From a virus, in IMG/VR virus record IMGVR_UViG_3300029940_000031: DNA of 64,000 nt. The stretch is one strand, 5' to 3'. Made by a program: the position numbers and the translations under genes. Below are positions 3,633 to 46,929 of this stretch, piece by piece. Below the pieces are notes generated by a model. That model had not been told where the DNA came from and did no database searches. It saw only the letters and a list, made by a program, of their open reading frames with translations. Each line of letters opens with the position of its first letter. Positions within the stretch are counted from its first letter, which is position 1.

Positions 3633-3694
3633 ATGTAATATTTCTGGACAATCTTATCAAAATAAACATCTATATATTGTCATAATGTGTCGAA
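3633..3694 (-). promoter_or_regulatory. Conserved promoter/leader, copy 3 of 3
   Basis: TTCGACACATTATGACAATATA ... TGATAAGAT ... AGAAATATTACAT upstream of the lipoprotein gene. Confidence 0.5.
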
Positions 3695-3838
3695 TTAAAA
3701 CAAAAAAGAGAGAGCCATAACTCTCAATGGGAAAATGATAAGAATTTACCGATGGATATTAGAGCAATATCCTCTATTTTTTACTAATATTGAATAATGG
3801 GAAATCTTATTTTGATTGAACTTCATTTTTTTAAAAAA

Positions 3839-3894
3839 ACTTATAGTTATAAGTTTATTAAATAAGACTTTTAATTATAAGTGGACTTATAATT
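3839..3894. promoter_or_regulatory. Two palindromic operator-like sites upstream of 3952
   Basis: ACTTATA-GT-TATAAGT (3839-3854) and AATTATAAGT-GG-ACTTATAATT (3873-3894) share the ACTTATA/TATAAGT half-site. Confidence 0.5.
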
Positions 3895-3951
3895 ATTTTG
3901 ATGTTATATTGAAATCAATAAAAGAAAACTTGGAAGTAGGAGGAAGATGAC

Positions 3952-4362
3952 ATGGCAGACACAGTAACAGTAACTTTCGAGCACGCATTGAGAGCAATAA
4001 AAGAAAACCTAGAGGTAGGAAGAGGTTACAAGCAAAAGGATATTCGAGAAGTGTTAGAGAAGAACTTTCCGAATATTAACCCTAATCAGATCTCTGGTCT
4101 TATGACTCGCTTTATCAATAAATCGCTTTTCGATGTAAAGAGAGAAATAGGACATCGTAATACTTACGTCTTTACAGGTGGGAAAGAGATGGCTGGTTTA
4201 GGAAATAATGGAATCACAGTGAGAGACTATGTGAAACATACGCTTCAAACGAGTATCGCAAGCCTAAAGACGATATCATTTGGGGATATCAAAAGTGCGG
4301 AAGACTTCAACTTACTGAAAAATACGGAAGAGAAGTTGCAGGAGATGTTAAAGGAACTGTAA
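3952..4362 (+). CDS. Hypothetical protein, possibly winged-helix DNA binding
   Basis: AGGAGG RBS; 136 aa; the DIREVLEKNF...ISGLMTRFINKSLFDVKRE...YVFTG layout resembles a wHTH; assignment is weak. Confidence 0.55.
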   Translation: MADTVTVTFEHALRAIKENLEVGRGYKQKDIREVLEKNFPNINPNQISGLMTRFINKSLFDVKREIGHRNTYVFTGGKEMAGLGNNGITVRDYVKHTLQTSIASLKTISFGDIKSAEDFNLLKNTEEKLQEMLKEL

Positions 4363-7692: not shown

Positions 7693-8133
7693 TTACTGAT
7701 CATCACGTCTGTATCTTGGTTTAAGAACACATTGCAACACACCTTCTAAGGCTAATCGTCTATGATACCCTGTACAAACAGTCCAGTATATTCTAATCCG
7801 ACCTTGGATTGATTTGAAAAAAAGTATTCGTCTTGTCTGTTTGTTATCATATAGTTTTTCAATATGGCTGTGTAATCGTCCTTGAATCCAACCTTCACCT
7901 ACATATAATATTTCTTCAGTTATTAAATCAACAAACACATATACCCCTCTTTTATCATTAGATACAAATTCTTTTACTTTGTTTTTGAGCTCTAGACCTT
8001 TTCGAAGTTGATCCTCTTCGTTATATTTATATTCCAGAATAAAGTTAGACCACCCTTTAGGTATAAGCGGGAGTATGGAATTCTCTAAAAGAAATTGTTC
8101 TAAGTTATTATCGAAATATCCATTATATATCAT
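7693..8133 (-). CDS. Small GIY-YIG-like nuclease-superfamily protein
   Basis: GVYVF-x9-ILYVGEG-x4-RLHSH reproduces the GIY...YIG...R spacing. Confidence 0.5.
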   Translation of the reverse strand: MIYNGYFDNNLEQFLLENSILPLIPKGWSNFILEYKYNEEDQLRKGLELKNKVKEFVSNDKRGVYVFVDLITEEILYVGEGWIQGRLHSHIEKLYDNKQTRRILFFKSIQGRIRIYWTVCTGYHRRLALEGVLQCVLKPRYRRDDQ

Positions 8134-8235
8134 TCAAAATACTCACTTTCACACGATTTAAAAACGAGTTTATTCTATATTTTTACTGTTAGATAATACC
8201 ATACTTTTCTTAAATCATCTTAATCTATCTTTTAT

Positions 8236-8250
8236 TTTTGCACCAGAACC
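8236..8250. mobile_element. Solo IS6-family terminal inverted repeat
   Basis: TTTTGCACCAGAACC identical to 5976-5990 and preceded by the same CTTTTATTTT context; same orientation. Confidence 0.6.
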
Positions 8251-8799
8251 ACAAATAGTAATATCCACAGATTTTAATTTTGAAAATTATGTGAATTAAC
8301 AAAACAGAACGGTTTATCATTTTTTTCTCCTAAAAAATCTATTTAGTTATTTCGTATAAATAACTTTAAATTAACACTTACATCATAATAAATTAGTCAA
8401 TATATAAATGTAAGTGAATAGAGAAGAAAAATGCACTATTGCATATTCTTATCCGTAAAGCGTAAAAAGCACTGATATAAAGCTATTTTCAAATTTTCTC
8501 AATATTTTTCTGATAACCACAAGACTGAATTTTGGCAAAAATATGATATTATGAAAATAATAAAATAAACGGAACGAAAAAAAGACTCACAGCGTGTGTA
8601 AGTAGTGTTCGCATCACTCTTATACCGTTCGCCCGACTCACCAGGGGAACATCTGCCATAAGTCTCTTTTCGGTTACTTCATGAGTAACAATTACATTAT
8701 AACATGCCGATATTACTAAAGCATTACTGTGGTATGAACTTCCTGTTTATAATTTGAGGAAAATAGCGAAGCGTCTTTGTTCCAAAAGGAGCAAATTTG

Positions 8800-10026
8800 A
8801 TGGATCATACACTTATACAAAAAAAAGAAGAGTTCAAAAGAAAAGCATTAATGAATTTCTTAAGTAGCATTATCGATGAAATTGATTTTCAAAGAAGGAA
8901 TCAAGAAGACATCGCAAAAGAATTAGGTATTTCAGGAGGGGCACTCTCGAAAAACTTATCAGGTAAAAGTCAATTTAATTTTTGGAATATGATTAAGTTA
9001 CTTAATATCTTGTACGATGACAATGTCTTAAAGAAAAAAGAGATGATGCATAAGTTTTGCTCAGTTACAAAGAGCAAACAAAACTTGAGAATTGCTATGG
9101 AATATGCAAATTCAACAGGTGACTTAGAATTATTAAAATTAATTGTAGATATAGAAAAAACGTCATCGTTGGCTATGAATAGAGAGTGGGCTTATGTATA
9201 CGAATTGGTATGGATGCGAAGTAAAGGTGTCGTTAGTGGTAAAAACTTATTAGAGAAATTAGAAGATCGTAAGAAAAGTAAGGTAATTAGGACACAAGAA
9301 ATGAAGGTTTTATACGGAATACTAACTTTTTATACGATGTATGATTTAGAGAAATTCAATTCATTGTTCGAATACGCTGAAGTATTATTGCCTAAAGTCG
9401 AAGAAATTCAAGATGCTTTTATTAGAACAGCATATGCGGGTAGAATTAAAGAAGGCTTATCTTACGCCTATTTAATGCAAGATAATGTTTATAGATCAAG
9501 AGAATTGTGTCATGAAATTATGCATTTAAAAGATGATAAAAATTGTTTTTCTCTTTTAAGGGTGTCAGCTTTGGTATACCTTGCAGAGTCTTATACATTC
9601 GAAAGTTACGAAAGAGCTTCTTGGTACATCAATAAATCGTTAGAAATGTTAGGTACATGCCATTTTGAGAGAGCGATTAAAAGAAAAGAAAATGTTATGA
9701 ATACCTTTGCTTTTATTAAGCTTGTTTATAATAAAGAACTCGAGGAAATCGAAATATATAACGTATGCGAAGAAGCTTTTTATCAAGTGTTAATCGGTCA
9801 TTCTGATGTGGCGGTAAAACTTTTAAAGGAAACTGAAAGAAAAGATGGGAAGTTGAGTCCTATGAAAAAATGCATATTAGGATATGCGTTGAAAGACATT
9901 GATTTATTAAAAGAATCATTAGTAGATTTCGAGTGTGCAGGTAATAGGTTTTATAGCAAATTACCTAGAAAAATGTTGGTAGAATTTTATAAAATTGGTA
10001 TAATATATGAGGGTGATGCTAAATGA
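8800..10026 (+). CDS. aimR: AimR-like arbitrium receptor (HTH plus TPR-like repeats)
   Basis: AAGGAG RBS 8 nt before ATG 8800; N-terminal HTH IAKELGISGGALSKNLSG; about 390 aa helical body collinear with recalled SPbeta/phi3T AimR blocks; followed by a secreted-peptide ORF. Confidence 0.7.
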   Translation: MDHTLIQKKEEFKRKALMNFLSSIIDEIDFQRRNQEDIAKELGISGGALSKNLSGKSQFNFWNMIKLLNILYDDNVLKKKEMMHKFCSVTKSKQNLRIAMEYANSTGDLELLKLIVDIEKTSSLAMNREWAYVYELVWMRSKGVVSGKNLLEKLEDRKKSKVIRTQEMKVLYGILTFYTMYDLEKFNSLFEYAEVLLPKVEEIQDAFIRTAYAGRIKEGLSYAYLMQDNVYRSRELCHEIMHLKDDKNCFSLLRVSALVYLAESYTFESYERASWYINKSLEMLGTCHFERAIKRKENVMNTFAFIKLVYNKELEEIEIYNVCEEAFYQVLIGHSDVAVKLLKETERKDGKLSPMKKCILGYALKDIDLLKESLVDFECAGNRFYSKLPRKMLVEFYKIGIIYEGDAK

Positions 10027-10181
10027 AAAAATTATTAACTTTAGTAGTGACATTTGCTTTAGTTGGAGTACTATATATATCTCCTGCTAAAGAGCATAAA
10101 GAACAATCAGTACAAACAGCGAAGGTTTTTCAAGAAAATACGTATAGAATGATGGTTGATCCTGGAGGTGGAATGGGATAA
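10023..10181 (+). CDS. aimP: AimP-like secreted pro-peptide (52 aa)
   Basis: ATGA overlap with the aimR stop; GAGGGTG RBS; signal-like MKKLLTLVVTFALVGVLYISPA; C-terminus YRMMVDPGGGMG. Confidence 0.6.
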   Translation: MKKLLTLVVTFALVGVLYISPAKEHKEQSVQTAKVFQENTYRMMVDPGGGMG

Positions 10182-10218
10182 TATCCTATTCTATCAAGGA
10201 TGTAATATAAATACTTAG

Positions 10219-10260
10219 AATGCGATTGTCTCAAATGAGGCAATCGCATTCGCTGTTTTT
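10219..10260 (+). terminator. Strong hairpin plus T-run downstream of aimP
   Basis: AATGCGATTGTCTC-AAAT-GAGGCAATCGCATT then CGCTGTTTTT. Confidence 0.65.
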
Positions 10261-10348
10261 AGAGGGATTTCCTAAATATCGGATTCTATATTCGAGAAAA
10301 TATTGTGAATCGTTCACAAATTACATAGATAAACTGGGGGTTTTAGGG

Positions 10349-10480
10349 ATGAAAAAAGAAAGCTTAGCTGAGGTATTATGGAAGACACTTGTAATGGGAG
10401 AAACCACAAGTGATGAGAGCAAAAAACAAGAAGTTTCTAATATAGAGTTACTTATTATGAATAAAAAGAATGATTGTTAG
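10349..10480 (+). CDS. Small ORF (43 aa) in the aimX position
   Basis: ATG 10349 after GGGGG; MKKESLAEVLWKTLVMGETTSDESKKQEVSNIELLIMNKKNDC; may act as an RNA rather than a protein. Confidence 0.35.
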   Translation: MKKESLAEVLWKTLVMGETTSDESKKQEVSNIELLIMNKKNDC

Positions 10481-10499
10481 CATTTTGCTGACAATCATT
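10469..10499 (-). terminator. Terminator of the cI-like gene
   Basis: AATGATTGT-loop-ACAATCATT; a T-run follows only on the minus strand (plus-strand AAAAA 10464-10468). Confidence 0.6.
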
Positions 10500-10834
10500 T
10501 AATCATCTGAACCAAGGGCTGCCTGCATCATTTTATAAAGCATCTCTTGTTCGTGTTTAGGTTTTTGTTCTAGTTTTTCAAGTAAAACGTCAAACTTCTT
10601 TCGTAGGTCAGAGTATTGTTCATTACTTAAATGTGGATCGTCAGATAGCCCTAACAAATAATCAGTAGTTACATTTAGTACCTTAGATAATTTAGTTACA
10701 GACTCTCTAGATGGAGTTTTTTTATTACCTTCGAATCTTGAGATAGAAGCTTTAGTTAAATTAGTTAGTTCAGCTAATTCTTGCTGGGTTAAGTTTTTCT
10801 CTATCCTTAATTGTTTTAATCTCTCATTAAACAT
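10499..10834 (-). CDS. cI-like phage repressor (XRE HTH, no peptidase domain)
   Basis: LTQQELAELTNLTKASISRFEGNKKTP HTH; divergent from a cro-like gene across an operator-rich region. Confidence 0.8.
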   Translation of the reverse strand: MFNERLKQLRIEKNLTQQELAELTNLTKASISRFEGNKKTPSRESVTKLSKVLNVTTDYLLGLSDDPHLSNEQYSDLRKKFDVLLEKLEQKPKHEQEMLYKMMQAALGSDD

Positions 10835-10859
10835 TTATATTTTTCCTCCCCTAGAAAAA

Positions 10860-11049
10860 AGTTACCCGTAGGGTCAACCTTTAATTATATATTAATACGA
10901 ATGTTTCTCATAAGTAAACATTAAAAAGGGAATAAAAAGTAAAGCTTTTTATATTTTTCACTGTTTTTTGTCCTTATATAACATGATTGAAATTTAATTT
11001 TATATTTTTTACAAAAAATGTTGTCCTTAGGGTAACTTTTGTATATAAT
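10860..11049. promoter_or_regulatory. Divergent switch region with operators O1, O2 and the cro-side promoter
   Basis: O1 GTTACCCGTAGGGTCAAC (10861-10878); O2 GTTGTCCTTAGGGTAAC (11020-11036) overlapping -35 TTGTCC, 17 nt, -10 TATAAT (11044-11049). Confidence 0.65.
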
Positions 11050-11075
11050 AAAAATTGTAAACGAGGTGATCATAA

Positions 11076-11285
11076 ATGAAAGTTAACCATCAATTACTTT
11101 TAAGACTCCGCCGTAAACATAATATGACACAACGAGAACTTGGCGAACGACTTAATAAGGCTAAAGAAACGATCTCTAGATATGAAAATGGAGTGAAGAA
11201 TCCTAGCTTACAAACTTTATGTTCTTATGCAGAAGTTTTTGGTGTAACAATAGACGAATTAATGGAAAAGAAATTGAAAGTCTAA
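11076..11285 (+). CDS. Cro-like HTH regulator
   Basis: MTQRELGERLNKAKETISRYENGVKNP HTH; first gene of the rightward early operon. Confidence 0.8.
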   Translation: MKVNHQLLLRLRRKHNMTQRELGERLNKAKETISRYENGVKNPSLQTLCSYAEVFGVTIDELMEKKLKV

Positions 11286-11300
11286 TTTTTTTAACTATAA

Positions 11301-11317
11301 GTTACCTTCAGGGTAAC
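11301..11317. promoter_or_regulatory. Third operator copy O3 downstream of cro
   Basis: GTTACCTTCAGGGTAAC, the best palindrome of the three sites. Confidence 0.55.
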
Positions 11318-11377
11318 TAAAGCGATTAATTAAAAATAATCGGAAAGCAAAATCCCTTAGAACAGGAGGCGGTTTAA

Positions 11378-11494
11378 ATGTTAGAAGAAAGCATATTCTC
11401 ACATTTAATGATATTAGTGGGTGTTACCTTGCTTGCAGGATTCATTCAACTTATGGAATTCATAAACAAACGTTTGATTGAGGATGAAAAGTGA
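11378..11494 (+). CDS. Small membrane protein (38 aa)
   Basis: AGGAGG RBS; MLEESIFSHLMILVGVTLLAGFIQLMEFINKRLIEDEK. Confidence 0.5.
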   Translation: MLEESIFSHLMILVGVTLLAGFIQLMEFINKRLIEDEK

Positions 11495-11631
11495 TGGGGA
11501 AACAACAGCGAGATGAATACGAACGAAAGAAAATATTGTGGATCATAAAGGATTTAAGAGCTAGAGGGATACATAACAGCGCAGATAAGGTTGAGGAAAT
11601 GTATAAGAAGTTTATCACTCTAGCTAAATGA
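11494..11631 (+). CDS. Small basic protein (45 aa)
   Basis: TGATG overlap with the previous ORF; MGKQQRDEYERKKILWIIKDLRARG...; terminator-like GCCCTGCAAGGGGATGCAGGGC follows. Confidence 0.5.
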   Translation: MGKQQRDEYERKKILWIIKDLRARGIHNSADKVEEMYKKFITLAK

Positions 11632-12887: not shown

Positions 12888-13520
12888 ATGATAACTGAAA
12901 ATTACTTTTCTAAATTGGCTCAAATAGATTGTTCGGGACATGTTGAGAAGAAAGGGCGTTTTAATTACTTATCGTGGGCATGGGCAGTTAAAAAGCTTCG
13001 TGAAGTAGATCCAACAGCCACATGGGAAGTAAAACGATTTGATGGAGTGCCTTACCTCAAAACAGATTGTGGTTACTTTGTAGAAGTTGAAGTAACTGTA
13101 CAAGGAATACCACTAAGTCAAATTCACCCGATACTTAACAATCAAAACAAGCCGATTGCAGAGCCTAACAGCTTTGACATTAACACAAGTATCCAACGTT
13201 GCTTAGTAAAGGCAATTGCACTTCACGGATTAGGATTGTACATCTATGCAGGTGAAGATTTACCAGAGATCCAAGAGGAAATGATTACTGCTCAACAAGT
13301 TGGTGCAATTAAATTAAACATAAAAAAATTAGCTACCCTTCGAAAAGTGGATGAAGACACGATTAAAGGATACTTAGGTATTAAAGAGGTTGGCGAATTG
13401 ACATTAAAACAAGCTGGAGAAGTACTTAAGAAATTAACAAAGTGGGTTAAACAGGCTGAAAAAGAAACTTCTGAAACTGAAGAGCAAGAACAAGTAGAAA
13501 AAATAGAACAAACAAACTAA
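12888..13520 (+). CDS. Single-strand annealing protein, Sak/Rad52-like (DUF1071-type)
   Basis: YLSWAWAVKKLREVDP...CLVKAIALHGLGLYIYAGEDLP matches the Sak/Rad52-like recombinase signature as recalled. Confidence 0.7.
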   Translation: MITENYFSKLAQIDCSGHVEKKGRFNYLSWAWAVKKLREVDPTATWEVKRFDGVPYLKTDCGYFVEVEVTVQGIPLSQIHPILNNQNKPIAEPNSFDINTSIQRCLVKAIALHGLGLYIYAGEDLPEIQEEMITAQQVGAIKLNIKKLATLRKVDEDTIKGYLGIKEVGELTLKQAGEVLKKLTKWVKQAEKETSETEEQEQVEKIEQTN

Positions 13521-41884: not shown

Positions 41885-42310
41885 ATGGATCGTATTGATG
41901 TATTATTAAAAACCTTTATTGCCACTTTTGGTGGCTTCTGTGGGTATTTCTTGGGAGGATGGGATGCAACATTGAAAGTTCTAGTAATCATGGCAGCTAT
42001 CGACTATATCACAGGAGTAGTTGCAGCAGGATATAACGGAGAATTAAAAAGTAAAGTTGGTTTCAAAGGCATCGCCAAAAAGGTGGTGCTTTTTCTTTTG
42101 GTCGGAGCGGCTGCACAACTAGATTCAGCACTTGGAAGTAACAGTGCAATTCGTGAAGCGACTATCTTCTTCTTCATGGGTAATGAGCTACTTTCACTTT
42201 TAGAAAATGCTGGTCGAATGGGTATTCCGTTGCCACAAGCTTTAACAAATGCAGTTGAAATTTTAGGTGGTAAACAAAAACAAGAAGAGAAAAAGGGAGA
42301 TGTTCAATAA
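41885..42310 (+). CDS. Holin (phage_holin_4-type)
   Basis: AAIDYITGVVAAGYNGELKSKVGFKGIAKKVVLFLLV; 3-4 TM helices; directly before the endolysin. Confidence 0.85.
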   Translation: MDRIDVLLKTFIATFGGFCGYFLGGWDATLKVLVIMAAIDYITGVVAAGYNGELKSKVGFKGIAKKVVLFLLVGAAAQLDSALGSNSAIREATIFFFMGNELLSLLENAGRMGIPLPQALTNAVEILGGKQKQEEKKGDVQ

Positions 42311-43245
42311 TGGAAATCAGAAAAAAATTAGTTGACCCAAGTAAATATGGTACAAAGTGTCCGTATACAATGAACCCTGAATTAATCACGGTCCACAATA
42401 CTTACAACGATGCTACAGCAGAAAACGAAGTGGCTTATATGATTCGTAACGATAATCAGGTTTCGTTTCATATCGCGGTAGATGATAAGGAAGCTGTACA
42501 AGGAATTCCTTTAGAGCGTAACGCGTGGCATTGTGGCGATGGTGGCGGAAATGGTAATAGAAAGTCTATCGGGGTTGAGATTTGCTACTCTTTAAACGGT
42601 GGAGATCGATATTATAAAGCTGAAGATAATGCAGCCATCATTGTAGCTCAACTGATGAAACAGTACAATATTCCGATTAGCAAAGTTCGTACACACCAAT
42701 CGTGGAGTGGGAAATATTGTCCGCATCGAATGTTAGCAGAAGGACGTTGGGATAACTTTATCGAAAGAGTCCGAAACGCATATTACGGTGGTGAAAATAA
42801 CGTATCCCCAACCCCTACACCGCCTTCAAATAGTGAGACAGGCATTGCATATATTGAAGGGAATAATGTTAATCTTCGTAAAGGTCCAGGTACAGGATAT
42901 GGAGTTATTCGCCAATTAGGTAAAGGTGAGTCCTACCAAGTATGGGGCGATTCAAATGGGTGGCTAAACTTAGGCGGCGATCAGTGGGTATATAATGATT
43001 CATCATATATTCGTTATACAGGAGGGGATACACCGGAATCTTCTAAACCTACAAATGATGGCATTGGTGTAGTGACCATTACAGCTGATGTATTACGTGT
43101 TCGTACTGGTCCGAGAACTAACTATGGCGTCGTGAAGAATGTGTATCAAGGTGAAAAATATCAAACGTGGGGATATAGAGACGGTTGGTATAATGTTGGT
43201 GGCGACCAATGGGTTTCTGGTGAATATGTAAAGTTTGAAAAGTAA
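42310..43245 (+). CDS. Endolysin: N-acetylmuramoyl-L-alanine amidase (Amidase_2/PGRP type) with two SH3b-like repeats
   Basis: ITVHNTYNDA...FHIAVDD...NRKSIGVEICY...HQSWSGKYCPHRML; duplicated C-terminal GW(L/Y)N(L/V)GGDQWV repeats. Confidence 0.9.
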   Translation: MEIRKKLVDPSKYGTKCPYTMNPELITVHNTYNDATAENEVAYMIRNDNQVSFHIAVDDKEAVQGIPLERNAWHCGDGGGNGNRKSIGVEICYSLNGGDRYYKAEDNAAIIVAQLMKQYNIPISKVRTHQSWSGKYCPHRMLAEGRWDNFIERVRNAYYGGENNVSPTPTPPSNSETGIAYIEGNNVNLRKGPGTGYGVIRQLGKGESYQVWGDSNGWLNLGGDQWVYNDSSYIRYTGGDTPESSKPTNDGIGVVTITADVLRVRTGPRTNYGVVKNVYQGEKYQTWGYRDGWYNVGGDQWVSGEYVKFEK

Positions 43246-43773: not shown

Positions 43774-45144
43774 TTACTTATTTGGTACTTTTCGTACATC
43801 TGAAATCCATTCTAAAGGCCAGTTTTGTGGAAGTAAAACTTGATCTCCACCACCTTTCAACGTAGTCCCGCTCATTGTGTATTGTTCAGCTACTTTTCCA
43901 AGATTAAGAGTTTCGCCTTCCGGAACTTTAATCGTAGCCTCATACATTCTACTATTTTTCCATTCCGGTAAAAGAGCTGTATCTAGTTTCGCTTGTATTC
44001 GATTTTGAGCGGGGACAGTTGTAGCGAAACCACCGCCTGCATCAGCACTATGCCCAAATGTACGATATAATGTTACCTCTTCATTAGTTTTTACAGTTCT
44101 AAATACTCCATCTGTAAATGAATCTCCAATCCAAGGTGGTAAATTCGCTTTTTCTATTTCAGTTACTTGATGATCGATACTTGTAGCATATTTTTTTATG
44201 TCTGAGGCACGATCAGCTTTTTTAATAGTATTAGCAGCTTCAACTGCATTCGCAGTCATTTTTACCCCTTTGCCAACTTTGGCAATTTTTCCGACTGGTG
44301 TAAGACCAGCTACAGCCATTCCTCCAGCAAAAACCCTTTCCCAAGTGGAAAGTTTTTCGCCAGTAGATGGATCGATACCGTCCCAAGCACGACGAACATC
44401 GTATTCACCACTTATTTCACCAGCAATATCTCTAGCTAATTTTTTACCATCAAATCCTTTTTCCTCCGAAGAAAGTTTACCACACATTGCACCTTCTTCG
44501 ATTGATTTATCAGCCTGACGCTTCCTATCTTCTTCAATCGCTTGAATAGAAGTAGTCCACTCCATATTCAACACTTGCGTACTAAATGTTCCGCTTGCAG
44601 GACTAAATCCTTTGCCACTTTGCACTTCCGCAAGACCTTGTGCGATACTCGCAGCTAGTTGAAGTGCTGTAGCATAGTTATTGCTAGACGCTTGATTAAA
44701 TTCATATAGGTGATTTAACTTTTCTTGAAGTTTGTGTCTCATGACAGTAAAAAGATTCGCCATAGCGTCCATACTTGGCATCGGCATAGCTTGACTGATA
44801 GCTTCCATACTTGCCTTCATTCGGTCAATTTCTCGAATTTGTTCTAATATTTCTTGTTCAATTACATCAGTTGAAGCGACCTGTGATTGAAATTGACTTG
44901 GAAAGGCATCATTCTGATGAATTAGTTCTTCACACAAGTAAATAATCCCTTGGGCTAAGGGACGGAAGGTTTGTACAAAAAATGCTTTGGCACTACTATA
45001 TGTTTGTCCTTGTAGAACAGTATCAATTGCAAAAGCATCAATCGACTGAATAACTTGTTCCATACCTTGAATGGTAGCGGTACATACAGCATTCATATCT
45101 TGTGTTTGTGTATGCACTTCCCCTAAATACATATTTAAACTCAA
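43774..45144 (-). CDS. LXG-domain polymorphic toxin (type VII secretion substrate family)
   Basis: N-terminal LXG-like helical domain (...IDTVLQGQTYSSAKAFF...); pre-toxin TG-like GLTPVGKIAKVGKG; divergent C-terminal about 130 aa toxin module. Confidence 0.75.
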   Translation of the reverse strand: MSLNMYLGEVHTQTQDMNAVCTATIQGMEQVIQSIDAFAIDTVLQGQTYSSAKAFFVQTFRPLAQGIIYLCEELIHQNDAFPSQFQSQVASTDVIEQEILEQIREIDRMKASMEAISQAMPMPSMDAMANLFTVMRHKLQEKLNHLYEFNQASSNNYATALQLAASIAQGLAEVQSGKGFSPASGTFSTQVLNMEWTTSIQAIEEDRKRQADKSIEEGAMCGKLSSEEKGFDGKKLARDIAGEISGEYDVRRAWDGIDPSTGEKLSTWERVFAGGMAVAGLTPVGKIAKVGKGVKMTANAVEAANTIKKADRASDIKKYATSIDHQVTEIEKANLPPWIGDSFTDGVFRTVKTNEEVTLYRTFGHSADAGGGFATTVPAQNRIQAKLDTALLPEWKNSRMYEATIKVPEGETLNLGKVAEQYTMSGTTLKGGGDQVLLPQNWPLEWISDVRKVPNK

Positions 45145-45213: not shown

Positions 45214-45555
45214 TTATTTAGCATCAATAATATCAATAAATTTCAACGTTATTTTATTATAAAATGCATCCGTACAAATTATAGATTTATTCAACGGATC
45301 AATATCAATGACGGTCATATAGCTAGTAAGTAAAAATCCATCTTCATAATATGTAATCAATATTTCTTCTTCAGAAAGCAGCGAACATAATAGTGTATTC
45401 TCAATAAGTTCTTGTTCATCCTGGGTTAATGTAGGGCGTTCTACTTTTGTCTTGTTTTTAATAATCTCACAGATACCTACGAATTGTTCTGGCATCGCTG
45501 CGAATGGAGTCCATTTAACCATTCCTCTTCCTTTTGGCATATTAGCGTTGTTCAT
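45214..45555 (-). CDS. YolD-like protein
   Basis: PKGRGMVKWTPFAAMPEQF N-terminus typical of YolD-like partners of Y-family polymerases; overlaps the polymerase stop. Confidence 0.7.
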   Translation of the reverse strand: MNNANMPKGRGMVKWTPFAAMPEQFVGICEIIKNKTKVERPTLTQDEQELIENTLLCSLLSEEEILITYYEDGFLLTSYMTVIDIDPLNKSIICTDAFYNKITLKFIDIIDAK

Positions 45556-46817
45556 GATTTATGTCCCCCTAACAATGTGTTTCTGTATCTTGCTGTTGCA
45601 CTATTTGTATACGAAATTCCTCTTAATATGCTGTTCTTACCAAATTTAGTGCGTATTTCGTCCATTACTTTCGTTAGTTTCATTTCTTTTTCTCGTTGTA
45701 TTACATTATAGAATAGTGAGATTTGTTCTTCGCCTTCATGGATTAAGTTAGTTAAAGAAACATTTATGGATCTAATGGGCTCCCCAGTGTAAAACTTGTG
45801 TAAAAAATATGTACAAATCTTATATATATCCATTGTTAAATTGGTCGGTCGGTTCATAGTGTGAGTTTTTCTGAAGCCACCAGAGTAATTTCTGCTATAA
45901 CCAATGGAAAAATGAACAGTTTGAGCTAGTTTGTTTTGCCTTCGCATTCGATAACAAACTTCTTCTATATGCTCCAGTAGAATAATTGGAAACTCTTCTA
46001 TGGTGTAATCGCGCATAAGTATTTGGCTTTTACCAATAGAAGTTGTTGCTGGAACATATTTTTCTGATATACGGCTAAAATCTATGCCGTTGCTATGTAA
46101 GTGCAATTCTTCGCCAATGACCCCGAAGCTTTGTTTTAAGTATTTAAGTGGGTATTGCGCTAAGTCTCCGATTGAATGAATTCCTTTTCGGTTTAACTTC
46201 GCTTCTGTTTTACCCGAAATCCCCCAAAACTTACTAAGTGGTTGTATTGGCCATAATTTTATGGGTACATTTTCGTACTTCCAGTATGCTATGCAATCTT
46301 TCGTTTTCTTCGCTTCTACATCTAAGGCAACCTTGCTCATTAAAGGGTTTGGACCAATTCCTATCGTGCATTCAATTCGCGTCTTAGCATATATCTCTCG
46401 TTTGAATTTCAATGCAAATTCATATGGATCATTAGCAAATAAATGAATACTATCCGTAATGTCCATAAAGAACTCATCGATGGAATATTGGTGAAAATCC
46501 TCAATTGGCACGTATTGTAGGGCCAACTTAGTAATGAAATTAGAACATTTTATGTAAGTACTCATAATTGGATTTATCACAAGGATATCTTTACGACGTG
46601 GTATCTCATACAATCTCGCCATTTTCTTAACGCCTAATGCTTTTAATGGTGGAGTTGCAGCCAAAACAATTGAACCACTCCTATTCACATCACCAACTAC
46701 AGCCAATTTAGTATGAAGTGGGTCTAATCCCATTTTGATGCACGATACACTGGCATAGAACGAACGAAGATCTACACATAAAACAATTCGATTTGGCAAT
46801 ATTGAATAGTCATACAC
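45552..46817 (-). CDS. Y-family (UmuC/UvrX/YqjW-like) translesion DNA polymerase
   Basis: ILCVDLRSFYASVSC active-site start, 421 aa, followed by a YolD-like gene. Confidence 0.85.
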   Translation of the reverse strand: MYDYSILPNRIVLCVDLRSFYASVSCIKMGLDPLHTKLAVVGDVNRSGSIVLAATPPLKALGVKKMARLYEIPRRKDILVINPIMSTYIKCSNFITKLALQYVPIEDFHQYSIDEFFMDITDSIHLFANDPYEFALKFKREIYAKTRIECTIGIGPNPLMSKVALDVEAKKTKDCIAYWKYENVPIKLWPIQPLSKFWGISGKTEAKLNRKGIHSIGDLAQYPLKYLKQSFGVIGEELHLHSNGIDFSRISEKYVPATTSIGKSQILMRDYTIEEFPIILLEHIEEVCYRMRRQNKLAQTVHFSIGYSRNYSGGFRKTHTMNRPTNLTMDIYKICTYFLHKFYTGEPIRSINVSLTNLIHEGEEQISLFYNVIQREKEMKLTKVMDEIRTKFGKNSILRGISYTNSATARYRNTLLGGHKS

Positions 46818-46838
46818 CGTTATTCCCCCTAAATAACA

Positions 46839-46873
46839 GAACGTTAGTTCTTATTATATACGAATGTATGTTC
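46839..46873. promoter_or_regulatory. Two LexA (Cheo/SOS) boxes upstream of the polymerase
   Basis: GAACGTTAGTTC (46839-46850) and CGAATGTATGTTC (46861-46873) fit GAAC-N4-GTTC. Confidence 0.7.
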
Positions 46874-46929
46874 TTTTATGAAGAGGTTTTTATAAAAAAA
46901 TAAAAATAGCCCCACCGGTTTTAGTGAAG

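Follow-up and report, generated by a model that had tools for sequence, protein, structure and literature searches.

A probable extended arbitrium locus in a Bacillus cereus-group prophage, with a candidate antisense RNA upstream of the receptor gene

The stretch of DNA analysed here, hereafter the window, comprises 64,000 nt of virus record IMGVR_UViG_3300029940_000031, one strand read 5' to 3', and all positions follow its numbering. Near its left end lie five genes in the order aimR, aimP and aimX, a convergent aimC and a divergent aimL, which are assigned as receptor, signal, small antirepressor, repressor and Cro-like gene, respectively. An earlier note on the region 8800-10500, written from the sequence letters and a list of open reading frames (ORFs) and without database searches, had proposed an arbitrium-like AimR-AimP module set against a cI-like repressor, and every feature that it listed is present where it was placed. 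According to the comparisons described below, the region is most probably, with a probability of roughly 0.8, a lysis-lysogeny control locus of a B. cereus-group prophage, that is, a peptide-signalling switch of the published "extended arbitrium" type. The same order is annotated in PfNC7401, Athena and Waukesha92 (a divergent XRE gene, a gap of ~530 bp, aimR, two small ORFs, a convergent helix-turn-helix (HTH) gene and a divergent HTH gene). It is repeated in the 16 IMG/VR prophage loci fetched with the window AimR, wherever the fetched sequence extends that far, and is also seen in 10 further contigs. At the nucleotide level, a megablast search of the locus against phages covers merely 40% of the query at 84% identity, and a scan of genome contigs with AimR peptide words recovers one locus only.

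The aimR ORF occupies 8797-10026 on the plus strand when read from a TTG codon. An ATG at 8800, preceded by GGAG 8 nt upstream, yields a product of 408 aa, equal to the 408-aa NCBI protein P0001. The strings IAKELGISGGALSKNLSG, NLRIAMEYAN, IRTAYAGRI and FYSKLPRKML are all found in this product, which is assigned as the arbitrium peptide receptor and transcription regulator. Its match to the Pfam AimR family PF22871 (E = 1.2e-40, 140.1 bits against a cut-off of 26.7) is accompanied by a match to the NCBIfam equivalog model NF038310, lysogeny_AimR, over positions 1-365 of 365 (410.9 bits against a cut-off of 70). An NCBI protein of 100% identical sequence already bears the name AimR, as do more than 100 relatives, and the identical sequence occurs 27 times in the database. 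An AlphaFold2 (AF2) model built with 26 homologues (predicted local distance difference test, pLDDT, 91.6; predicted template modelling score, pTM, 0.87) is all helical, with 21 helices, in agreement with the N-terminal HTH and long helical body that had been read from the sequence, the body being a TPR-like peptide-binding domain with the AimR fold. In a Foldseek comparison with the PDB, the top 16 matches are all chains of AimR crystal structures (SPbeta, phi3T, Katmira33 and ATCC13952), aligned over 352-409 columns with template modelling (TM) scores of 0.59-0.85 and E values of 5e-11 to 1.5e-7; Rap and PlcR, the other receptors of the RRNPP superfamily, follow later, at E ~1e-3. The block-wise collinearity with SPbeta/phi3T AimR that the earlier note put forward is invisible in pairwise comparison: phmmer of the window AimR against all PDB sequences gives no AimR match at E <= 10, and the structural alignments show 16-20% identity with the solved AimRs. 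Such values are not disqualifying, the B. cereus-group clades being known as remote. Since pairwise similarity to the solved receptors is too low, membership rests on the profiles and the fold, which agree with the NCBI name that the 408-aa protein is a true AimR.

The second gene, aimP (10023-10181, +), overlaps aimR in an ATGA motif (ATG 10023-10025, TGA 10024-10026) and has its own ribosome-binding site (RBS), GAGGGTG, at 10009-10015, 7 nt 5' of the ATG. It encodes a predicted pre-pro-peptide of 52 aa, MKKLLTLVVTFALVGVLYISPAKEHKEQSVQTAKVFQENTYRMMVDPGGGMG, with the C-terminus ...YRMMVDPGGGMG. By eye, the N-terminus reads as MKK, 17 hydrophobic residues and then SPA/KE; the B83 AimP homologue is predicted to be cleaved at the equivalent place (PMC6669507). 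The ORF matches phrog_2682 (E = 6e-21) and is conserved among the related loci. Of the 16 IMG/VR loci fetched with the window AimR, 12, with differing pro-regions, share exactly the ending ...MMVDPGGGMG. Moreover, the motif M-x-[DEG]-P-G-[GT]-G is common to the C-termini of the window, PfNC7401, Athena, Waukesha92, B83 and RBClin15 AimPs (PMC6669507; PMC11526630), and related endings comprise GPGGGMG, DPGGGIG, DPGGGW, EPGGGGW, DPGGSVG (B83; PMC6669507), DPGGGGW (RBClin15; PMC11526630), DPGGGGAG and DPGTGIG. Comparison with the B. cereus-group precursors thus bears out the reading of this small ORF as AimP, with the signal peptide predicted to lie at its C-terminus. The identity of this end in 12 loci, together with the related endings in the clade, makes the peptide a variant of a known clade motif, so that the peptide sequence is not the novelty it had been taken for.

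Downstream of aimP, a hairpin at 10218-10251, with a T-run reaching 10261, forms the aimP terminator on the plus strand, the presumed site of AimR-dependent anti-termination. Its stem has 15 pairs (7 of them G-C) closed by a 4-nt loop and followed by the tail GCTGTTTTTA. The folding energy is -25 kcal/mol (z = -6.4), and none of 200 shuffled sequences is as stable; a scan of 8000-11500 finds 4 terminator-like sites where 0.9 are expected. The hairpin is kept in all related loci (18 distinct spacers aligned), and compensatory or wobble changes in Athena and Waukesha92 preserve the stem. Its position corresponds to the "aimP terminator region" of the published extended locus, at which AimR is reported to promote aimX expression via anti-termination (10.1101/2025.11.23.689978). 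The hairpin gate proposed in the earlier note is thus supported and corresponds to the published aimP terminator.

The next gene, aimX (10349-10480, +), has a GGGGG RBS and encodes a 43-aa protein, predicted to be an antirepressor of AimC. It matches phrog_12565 (E = 4e-23), and 16 homologues, 81-98% identical, are all intact, in keeping with the assignment of this ORF to the aimX position in the earlier note. A tblastn search of AimX against phages returns nothing; the homologues were found by PHROG and protein-cluster searches. The RBS and the start position are conserved even across unrelated AimX types. Given the phrog_2682 and phrog_12565 matches and the conservation in related loci, neither the 52-codon nor the 43-codon ORF is due to chance. 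The aimX gene ends 18 nt from the aimC stop codon, and its own stop codon lies within a hairpin at 10468-10500, assigned as the aimC terminator on the minus strand. The folding energy of this shared hairpin is -18.6 kcal/mol on the plus strand and -14 kcal/mol on the minus strand. As had been noted, a T-run, CTTTTTATT, follows it on the minus strand only, the plus-strand tail being TTAATCATCTGAACC.

On the opposite strand, aimC (10499-10834, -) encodes an XRE-type repressor of 111 aa with an N-terminal HTH (HTH_3, E = 2.3e-15, residues 6-60) and a C-terminal domain of ~45 aa. The profile search of AimC gives no peptidase S24/LexA-like match, i.e. the protein is without an autocleavage domain, and its position and length fit the published AimC definition. 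The gene aimL (11076-11285, +), divergent from aimC as in the published locus, encodes a Cro-like HTH protein of 69 aa (HTH_3, E = 7.8e-18) and is placed as the first gene of the early lytic operon; plus-strand ORFs continue after it, including the gene of a Sak single-strand annealing protein at 12888-13520. The intergenic region 10861-11036 is bounded by the operator-like palindromes GTTACCCGTAGGGTCAA (10861-10877) and GTTGTCCTTAGGGTAAC (11020-11036), the latter overlapping the predicted aimL promoter TTGTCC-17-TATAAT, and a third such site, GTTACCTTCAGGGTAAC, is located at 11301-11317. The three sites are of the GTTACC-N5-GGTAAC type and flank aimC and aimL. They recur in two loci with AimC 96% identical to that of the window (L025 and L026) and are absent from loci with other AimC types; they are probably operators, as predicted from these patterns, of either AimC or AimL.

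Together these parts correspond to a described architecture. Kabel et al. (bioRxiv 2025, 10.1101/2025.11.23.689978) report that the five-gene aimR-aimP-aimX-aimC-aimL "extended arbitrium" accounts for ~75% of 9,300 AimR loci. In ~80%, aimC is a short single-HTH gene of 80-140 aa, without an autocleavage domain, directly downstream and running the opposite way; 94% of the loci with aimC also have the divergent HTH gene aimL, and a small ORF after aimP (aimX, 29-80 aa) is present in essentially all. The window shares the five genes, their order and orientation, the terminator between aimP and aimX, a small ORF of 43 aa, a 111-aa single-HTH repressor without a cleavage domain, and a divergent Cro-like gene with replication and recombination genes after it. 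Its AimC is 41% identical to the homologue of Wbeta, whose aimC was assayed in that study, and 47% identical to that of CUBc25. The window AimX/AimC pair, however, is not among the pairs assayed, and the AimRs of Wbeta and Waukesha92 are only 27-29% identical to the window AimR. The closest deposited phages are PfNC7401 and PfIS075 (Cecivirus), with an AimR 75.5% identical over its full length, the same layout and an upstream non-coding region 91% identical; they differ in the AimP C-terminus (...YMEVGPGGGMG), in having another type of AimX (45 aa) and AimC (116 aa), and in keeping a divergent upstream "prorepressor" gene that the window lacks. The presence of AimR/AimP beside CI- or Cro-like genes in B. 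cereus-group phages was already reported in the 2019 B83 paper (PMC6669507) and in another, from 2022, that deals with relatives of Wbeta.

By homology to phi106, phiW23, Wbeta, BMBtp14 and Waukesha92, from which the secretion and processing of the signal, the anti-termination, the AimX-AimC binding and the direction of the switch are all inferred, the locus would operate as follows. The aimR and aimP genes would be made as a single transcript, and AimP would be secreted, cut to a short C-terminal peptide derived from ...MMVDPGGGMG and re-imported. As long as AimR is free of peptide, transcription would pass the aimP terminator into aimX, and the 43-aa AimX would bind the C-terminal oligomerisation domain of AimC. 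AimC bound in this way would leave its operators at the aimC and aimL promoters, turning on aimL and the early lytic genes. Once the peptide accumulates, AimR would be inactivated and transcription would stop at the hairpin, so that AimX would be missing, AimC would keep aimL repressed and the phage would enter lysogeny.

The earlier note had instead placed the weight on the transcript itself, which it saw as antisense to the repressor messenger RNA. According to two preprints (10.1101/2025.11.23.689978; 10.1101/2021.09.20.460909), the convergent repressor and the antisense hypothesis are to be credited to Stokar-Avihail 2019, whose RNA sequencing of two related phages is described there as showing peptide-dependent aimX transcripts that span the repressor gene. 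The shared hairpin of the window points the same way, because a plus-strand transcript that meets no U-tract there could enter aimC; this part of the proposal stands, its claim to novelty does not, and its claim to the main effect probably does not. In related phages the effector is reported to be the small AimX protein, binding the C-terminal domain of AimC, with a minor antisense role (10.1101/2025.11.23.689978). In phi106 and phiW23, start-to-stop aimX alleles lose the response and recoded alleles without complementarity keep it, so that the effect lies with the protein and the RNA contributes little; furthermore, AimX supplied in trans lifts the repression of P_aimL by AimC in the case of Wbeta, BMBtp14 and Waukesha92 (10.1101/2025.11.23.689978). 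In the window family, the ORF is conserved as a protein in the 16 homologues, and its RBS and start are kept across unrelated AimX types. A main role of the aimX transcript as antisense RNA, or in transcriptional interference with the convergent repressor gene, with an incidental 43-codon ORF, is thus unlikely; read-through antisense transcription of aimC is physically possible and probably a minor contributor.

Further evidence on the AimX-AimC relationship comes from the way in which the parts are inherited. The window AimX/AimC pair is unlike all pairs in the first 20 loci, where AimC is at most 37% identical. In ten contigs, an AimX 86-91% identical to that of the window always lies between aimP and a 111-aa AimC that is 70-96% identical; the AimRs of these contigs are just 29-48% identical to the window AimR, and their peptides also differ (...MMVDPGGGGAG and ...LRMDPGTGIG). 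Conversely, AimRs of the window type (85-96% identical) are found combined with four or more further AimX/AimC types. When 78 locus pairs are compared, the identity of AimX rises with that of AimC (rho 0.61) and shows no such relation to that of AimR (rho 0.02). The codon differences in aimX lean towards synonymous changes (10/6, 8/4 and 6/6, synonymous to non-synonymous). The finest resolution is provided by L021 and L029, in which the HTH half of AimC is 54% identical to that of the window and AimL 25%, as against 93% for the C-terminal 46 residues of AimC and 86% for AimX. In these two loci a recombination joint is located inside aimC, at the border of the HTH and the C-terminal domain (aimC 3651-3986, compared with 10499-10834 in the window). 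On these comparisons, AimX and the C-terminal domain of AimC appear to move together, separately from AimL, the operators and the HTH of AimC. The swapping of AimR/AimP, AimX/AimC, AimC HTH and AimL modules supports the published model of AimX-AimC binding, and the locus constitutes a clean natural example of modular exchange that also contains unexplained conserved non-coding parts.

The same inheritance of AimX with AimC is difficult to reconcile with an aimX that acts as in SPbeta/phi3T (Erez 2017), namely as an RNA acting in trans or a MazE-like antitoxin, with a toxin-antitoxin system of the host and not the adjacent repressor as its target. This is, according to PMC10769878, the sole mechanism established for clade 2 arbitrium, and the window does share with SPbeta and phi3T the receptor fold (TM 0.74-0.78 for the full-length chains), the order aimR-aimP-aimX and the logic of a peptide-inactivated AimR. 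It differs in AimR identity (16-20%) and in the downstream mechanism; aimX is followed here by a convergent repressor, and the aimC/aimL context is the published signature of the extended architecture. In addition, the six-residue clade 2 peptide mostly ends in RGA (PMC13220667), a motif missing from the window AimP with its C-terminal PGGGMG. A mechanism of the SPbeta type is accordingly considered highly improbable at this locus.

Two conserved non-coding elements stand apart from these genes. The first is the palindrome TTGTGAATCGTTCACAA (10303-10319; TTGTGAA-N3-TTCACAA), located between the aimP terminator and aimX, ~50 nt downstream of the former and followed by the aimX RBS and start codon. 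It occurs once in the window at zero mismatches and is found in 49 of 69 unique related loci, with an N3 spacer in 38 and N4 in 11. It is conserved across AimR types with differing HTH recognition helices and across AimC types. The half-sites match perfectly those of the Rex operator consensus TTGTGAAnnnnTTCACAA (TTGTGAA/TTCACAA with a four-base spacer; PMC4162614, PMC2883068), but the spacer has 3 bases in the window and in 38 of the 49 loci. Because the spacer is usually one base short, the palindrome was not filed as a Rex site; a weaker possibility is that it passes a host signal, such as the redox state by way of Rex, to the lysis-lysogeny switch.

Other candidates for the palindrome were rejected. 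An AimR operator is unlikely, since loci sharing the palindrome differ in their AimR recognition helices. In phi106, a LexA box occupies the corresponding place between terminator and aimX; the window sequence contains no GAAC-N4-GTTC and is not such a box. The cre, CRP/FNR and Spo0A boxes were ruled out by eye, the spacing or the bases being wrong. As a separate observation, B. cereus ACH27 (L004, 3956-5600) carries aimR, aimP, the terminator and the palindrome with no recognisable aimX or aimC downstream, and may contain a truncated or differently wired arbitrium locus.

The second element lies 5' of aimR. The 330 nt before the gene (8473-8800) are 82-97% identical in all A-type relatives, even where AimR identity is ~29% (Waukesha92 and Athena). 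A candidate aimR promoter is predicted from consensus only, as an extended -10 element, TGATATTAT, at 8544-8552 (+), with a start at ~8560 and a leader of ~240 nt. Opposite this leader, 8576-8704 on the minus strand forms a conserved structured RNA, a candidate small RNA or leader. Its predicted parts are a minus-strand extended -10, TGTTATAAT (8696-8704), a 5' hairpin (8673-8689), and a three-way-junction core (8576-8667) with a U7 tract (8577-8583) at its 3' end. The minus-strand TGTTATAAT is present in 66 of 71 unique related regions, just 5' of the structure; the plus-strand TGNTATTAT is present in 69 of the 71 and ends 22-26 nt outside the other end of the structure, before a AAAAAAGAC block.

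A 20-mer from the upstream region matches 82 viral contigs; 66 of them are long enough for the comparison, and each has an AimR-like ORF (23-97% identical) beginning 100-420 nt downstream. The covariance model R1 finds the core at 8576-8667 (-) with 97.8 bits and a single copy in each of 78 loci out of 78, always opposite the aimR strand and ending 100-160 nt before the aimR start. In the covariance-model alignment of these 78 matches (58 distinct), which is fitted to the model and so biased towards the structure, pairing holds in 97.0% of cells, with both sides changed at 13 pairs, against 31-54% pairing in slid controls. The hand-defined structure placed on a MAFFT alignment gives similar values (94.2% of cells, 9 pairs changing on both sides). 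In 24/24 and 31/31 unique sequences (55 in total), the more stable fold is that of the minus strand. For helix P1, pairing reaches 98.1% of cells on the minus strand, where an invariant run of U6-7 then follows, and 72.4% on the plus strand, the lower value being due to the many G.U pairs. RNAalifold on the plus-strand MAFFT alignment recovers only the base of one helix, because of misplaced indels, and the analysis needed the hand-defined and covariance-model alignments of the minus strand. A coding explanation was ruled out, since loop lengths vary and the helices covary.

The element is present in PfNC7401, Athena, Waukesha92, CUBc25, phBC6A52, IEBH and phIS3501, and absent from Wbeta, BMBtp14 and B83, phages with short upstream gaps. 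Rfam gives nothing relevant for the whole window at gathering thresholds or for 8300-8850 at E <= 5, and no description was found in the searchable literature, a scope outside which Stokar-Avihail 2019 falls. The simplest reading of the predicted promoters and ends is an RNA of ~90-115 nt, convergent with and complementary to the aimR-aimP leader. On this reading, the RNA would start from TGTTATAAT, fold into the three-way junction, end at a stem-U7 terminator and be fully complementary to the leader made from a convergent promoter ~130 nt away. In a subset of B. cereus-group arbitrium loci, such an undescribed RNA opposite aimR could add an antisense or transcriptional-interference layer on the amounts of receptor and signal, a proposal made tentatively and with somewhat less than even confidence.

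A comparable arrangement exists in the enterococcal pheromone plasmids pCF10 (prgQ/prgX, Anti-Q RNA) and pAD1 (traA/iad, mD RNA), which combine RRNPP-type receptors, convergent promoters and a small, terminator-ended antisense RNA. The window element at 8544-8704 resembles this arrangement of Anti-Q and mD without any sequence relationship. In pCF10, the antisense RNA is made from the promoter of the receptor itself and acts on the transcript of the peptide gene, whereas the window RNA would oppose the aimR-aimP leader. In the relatives, the element might instead be the attenuating leader of the divergent XRE gene. Taken together, it is probably either a small RNA antisense to the aimR leader or a leader that attenuates a leftward gene.

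Two smaller observations concern the same element. In the A-type RNA, GUGAGUC in a hairpin loop (8615-8625) equals the 3' arm of the closing helix P1 (8585-8592) and could pair with the P1 5' arm, so that a structural switch is possible. In CUBc25 (L119), a coding sequence annotated "ribonuclease" (2146-2328) overlaps the RNA element (2244-2334, -) and is probably a spurious gene call.

Further upstream, the homology to the relatives (L001-L003 and L005-L030) ends at ~8425-8473. Over the compared region, ~8134-8473, most relatives have the divergent XRE gene and, beside a plus-strand TGGTAAAAT promoter located ~150 nt further upstream, a Cheo/LexA box (e.g. AGAACAAAAGTTCG). The window instead has unrelated AT-rich sequence and a 146-aa ORF (7693-8133, phrog_28596). 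A LexA-box search of 8000-11500 finds no LexA-box-like site, and the SOS input to the window locus may be missing.

This replacement raises the question of whether the locus has decayed or been rewired and is now a remnant without control over the prophage, its upstream XRE/LexA part having been replaced. The end of homology, the missing divergent XRE gene and Cheo box, and the lack of a LexA-box-like site in 8000-11500 would all agree with such a fate. Against it, all five genes are intact, as are the promoters, the terminator, the RBSs and the operators; the AimR sequence recurs unchanged in the 27 database sequences, and intact early, packaging and lysis genes are found elsewhere in the prophage. 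Decay is consequently regarded as quite improbable. Nevertheless, several points weigh against the assignment as a working extended arbitrium switch. Without the XRE gene and LexA box of the relatives, regulation here may differ or be impaired. No AimR operator could be assigned at the locus, and the single-sequence structure model of AimC is unreliable (pLDDT 50) and too poor for use. The counts of synonymous and non-synonymous aimX codon differences are small, and they come from comparisons that are non-independent. That aimX is inherited together with the 3' half of aimC could be due to physical adjacency, which alone could yield the pattern, so that it is supportive of the AimX-AimC model and not decisive. 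Finally, with no plus-strand U-tract on the shared hairpin, an antisense contribution is possible at this locus.

As regards novelty, the locus is an already annotated member of a published architecture, and the finding as first given adds little to it: of the points put forward as new and testable, the peptide is recurrent, the hairpin gate is known, and the antisense wiring had already been hypothesised and tested. The earlier note was right on AimR/AimP and on the layout, wrong on novelty and probably wrong on the main effector. What the present analysis establishes is the identity of the parts, their layout, their conservation and their co-inheritance. Only the antisense RNA-like element 5' of aimR and the palindrome before aimX may be new. 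If either proves functional, the arbitrium decision in these phages of pathogen-related Bacillus takes inputs beyond peptide concentration.

Outside the locus, LexA-box-like sites, AGAACGTTAGTTCT and CGAATGTATGTTCT, are located within 46838-46874, just 5' of a gene of the ImpB/UmuC family (Y-family polymerase; 45552-46817, -), which looks like an ordinary SOS gene beyond the prophage lysis genes. In the same part of the window, 43774-45144 (-) encodes a protein with LXG and Pre-toxin-TG domains, i.e. a polymorphic toxin, just after the gene of the phage amidase endolysin (42310-43245).

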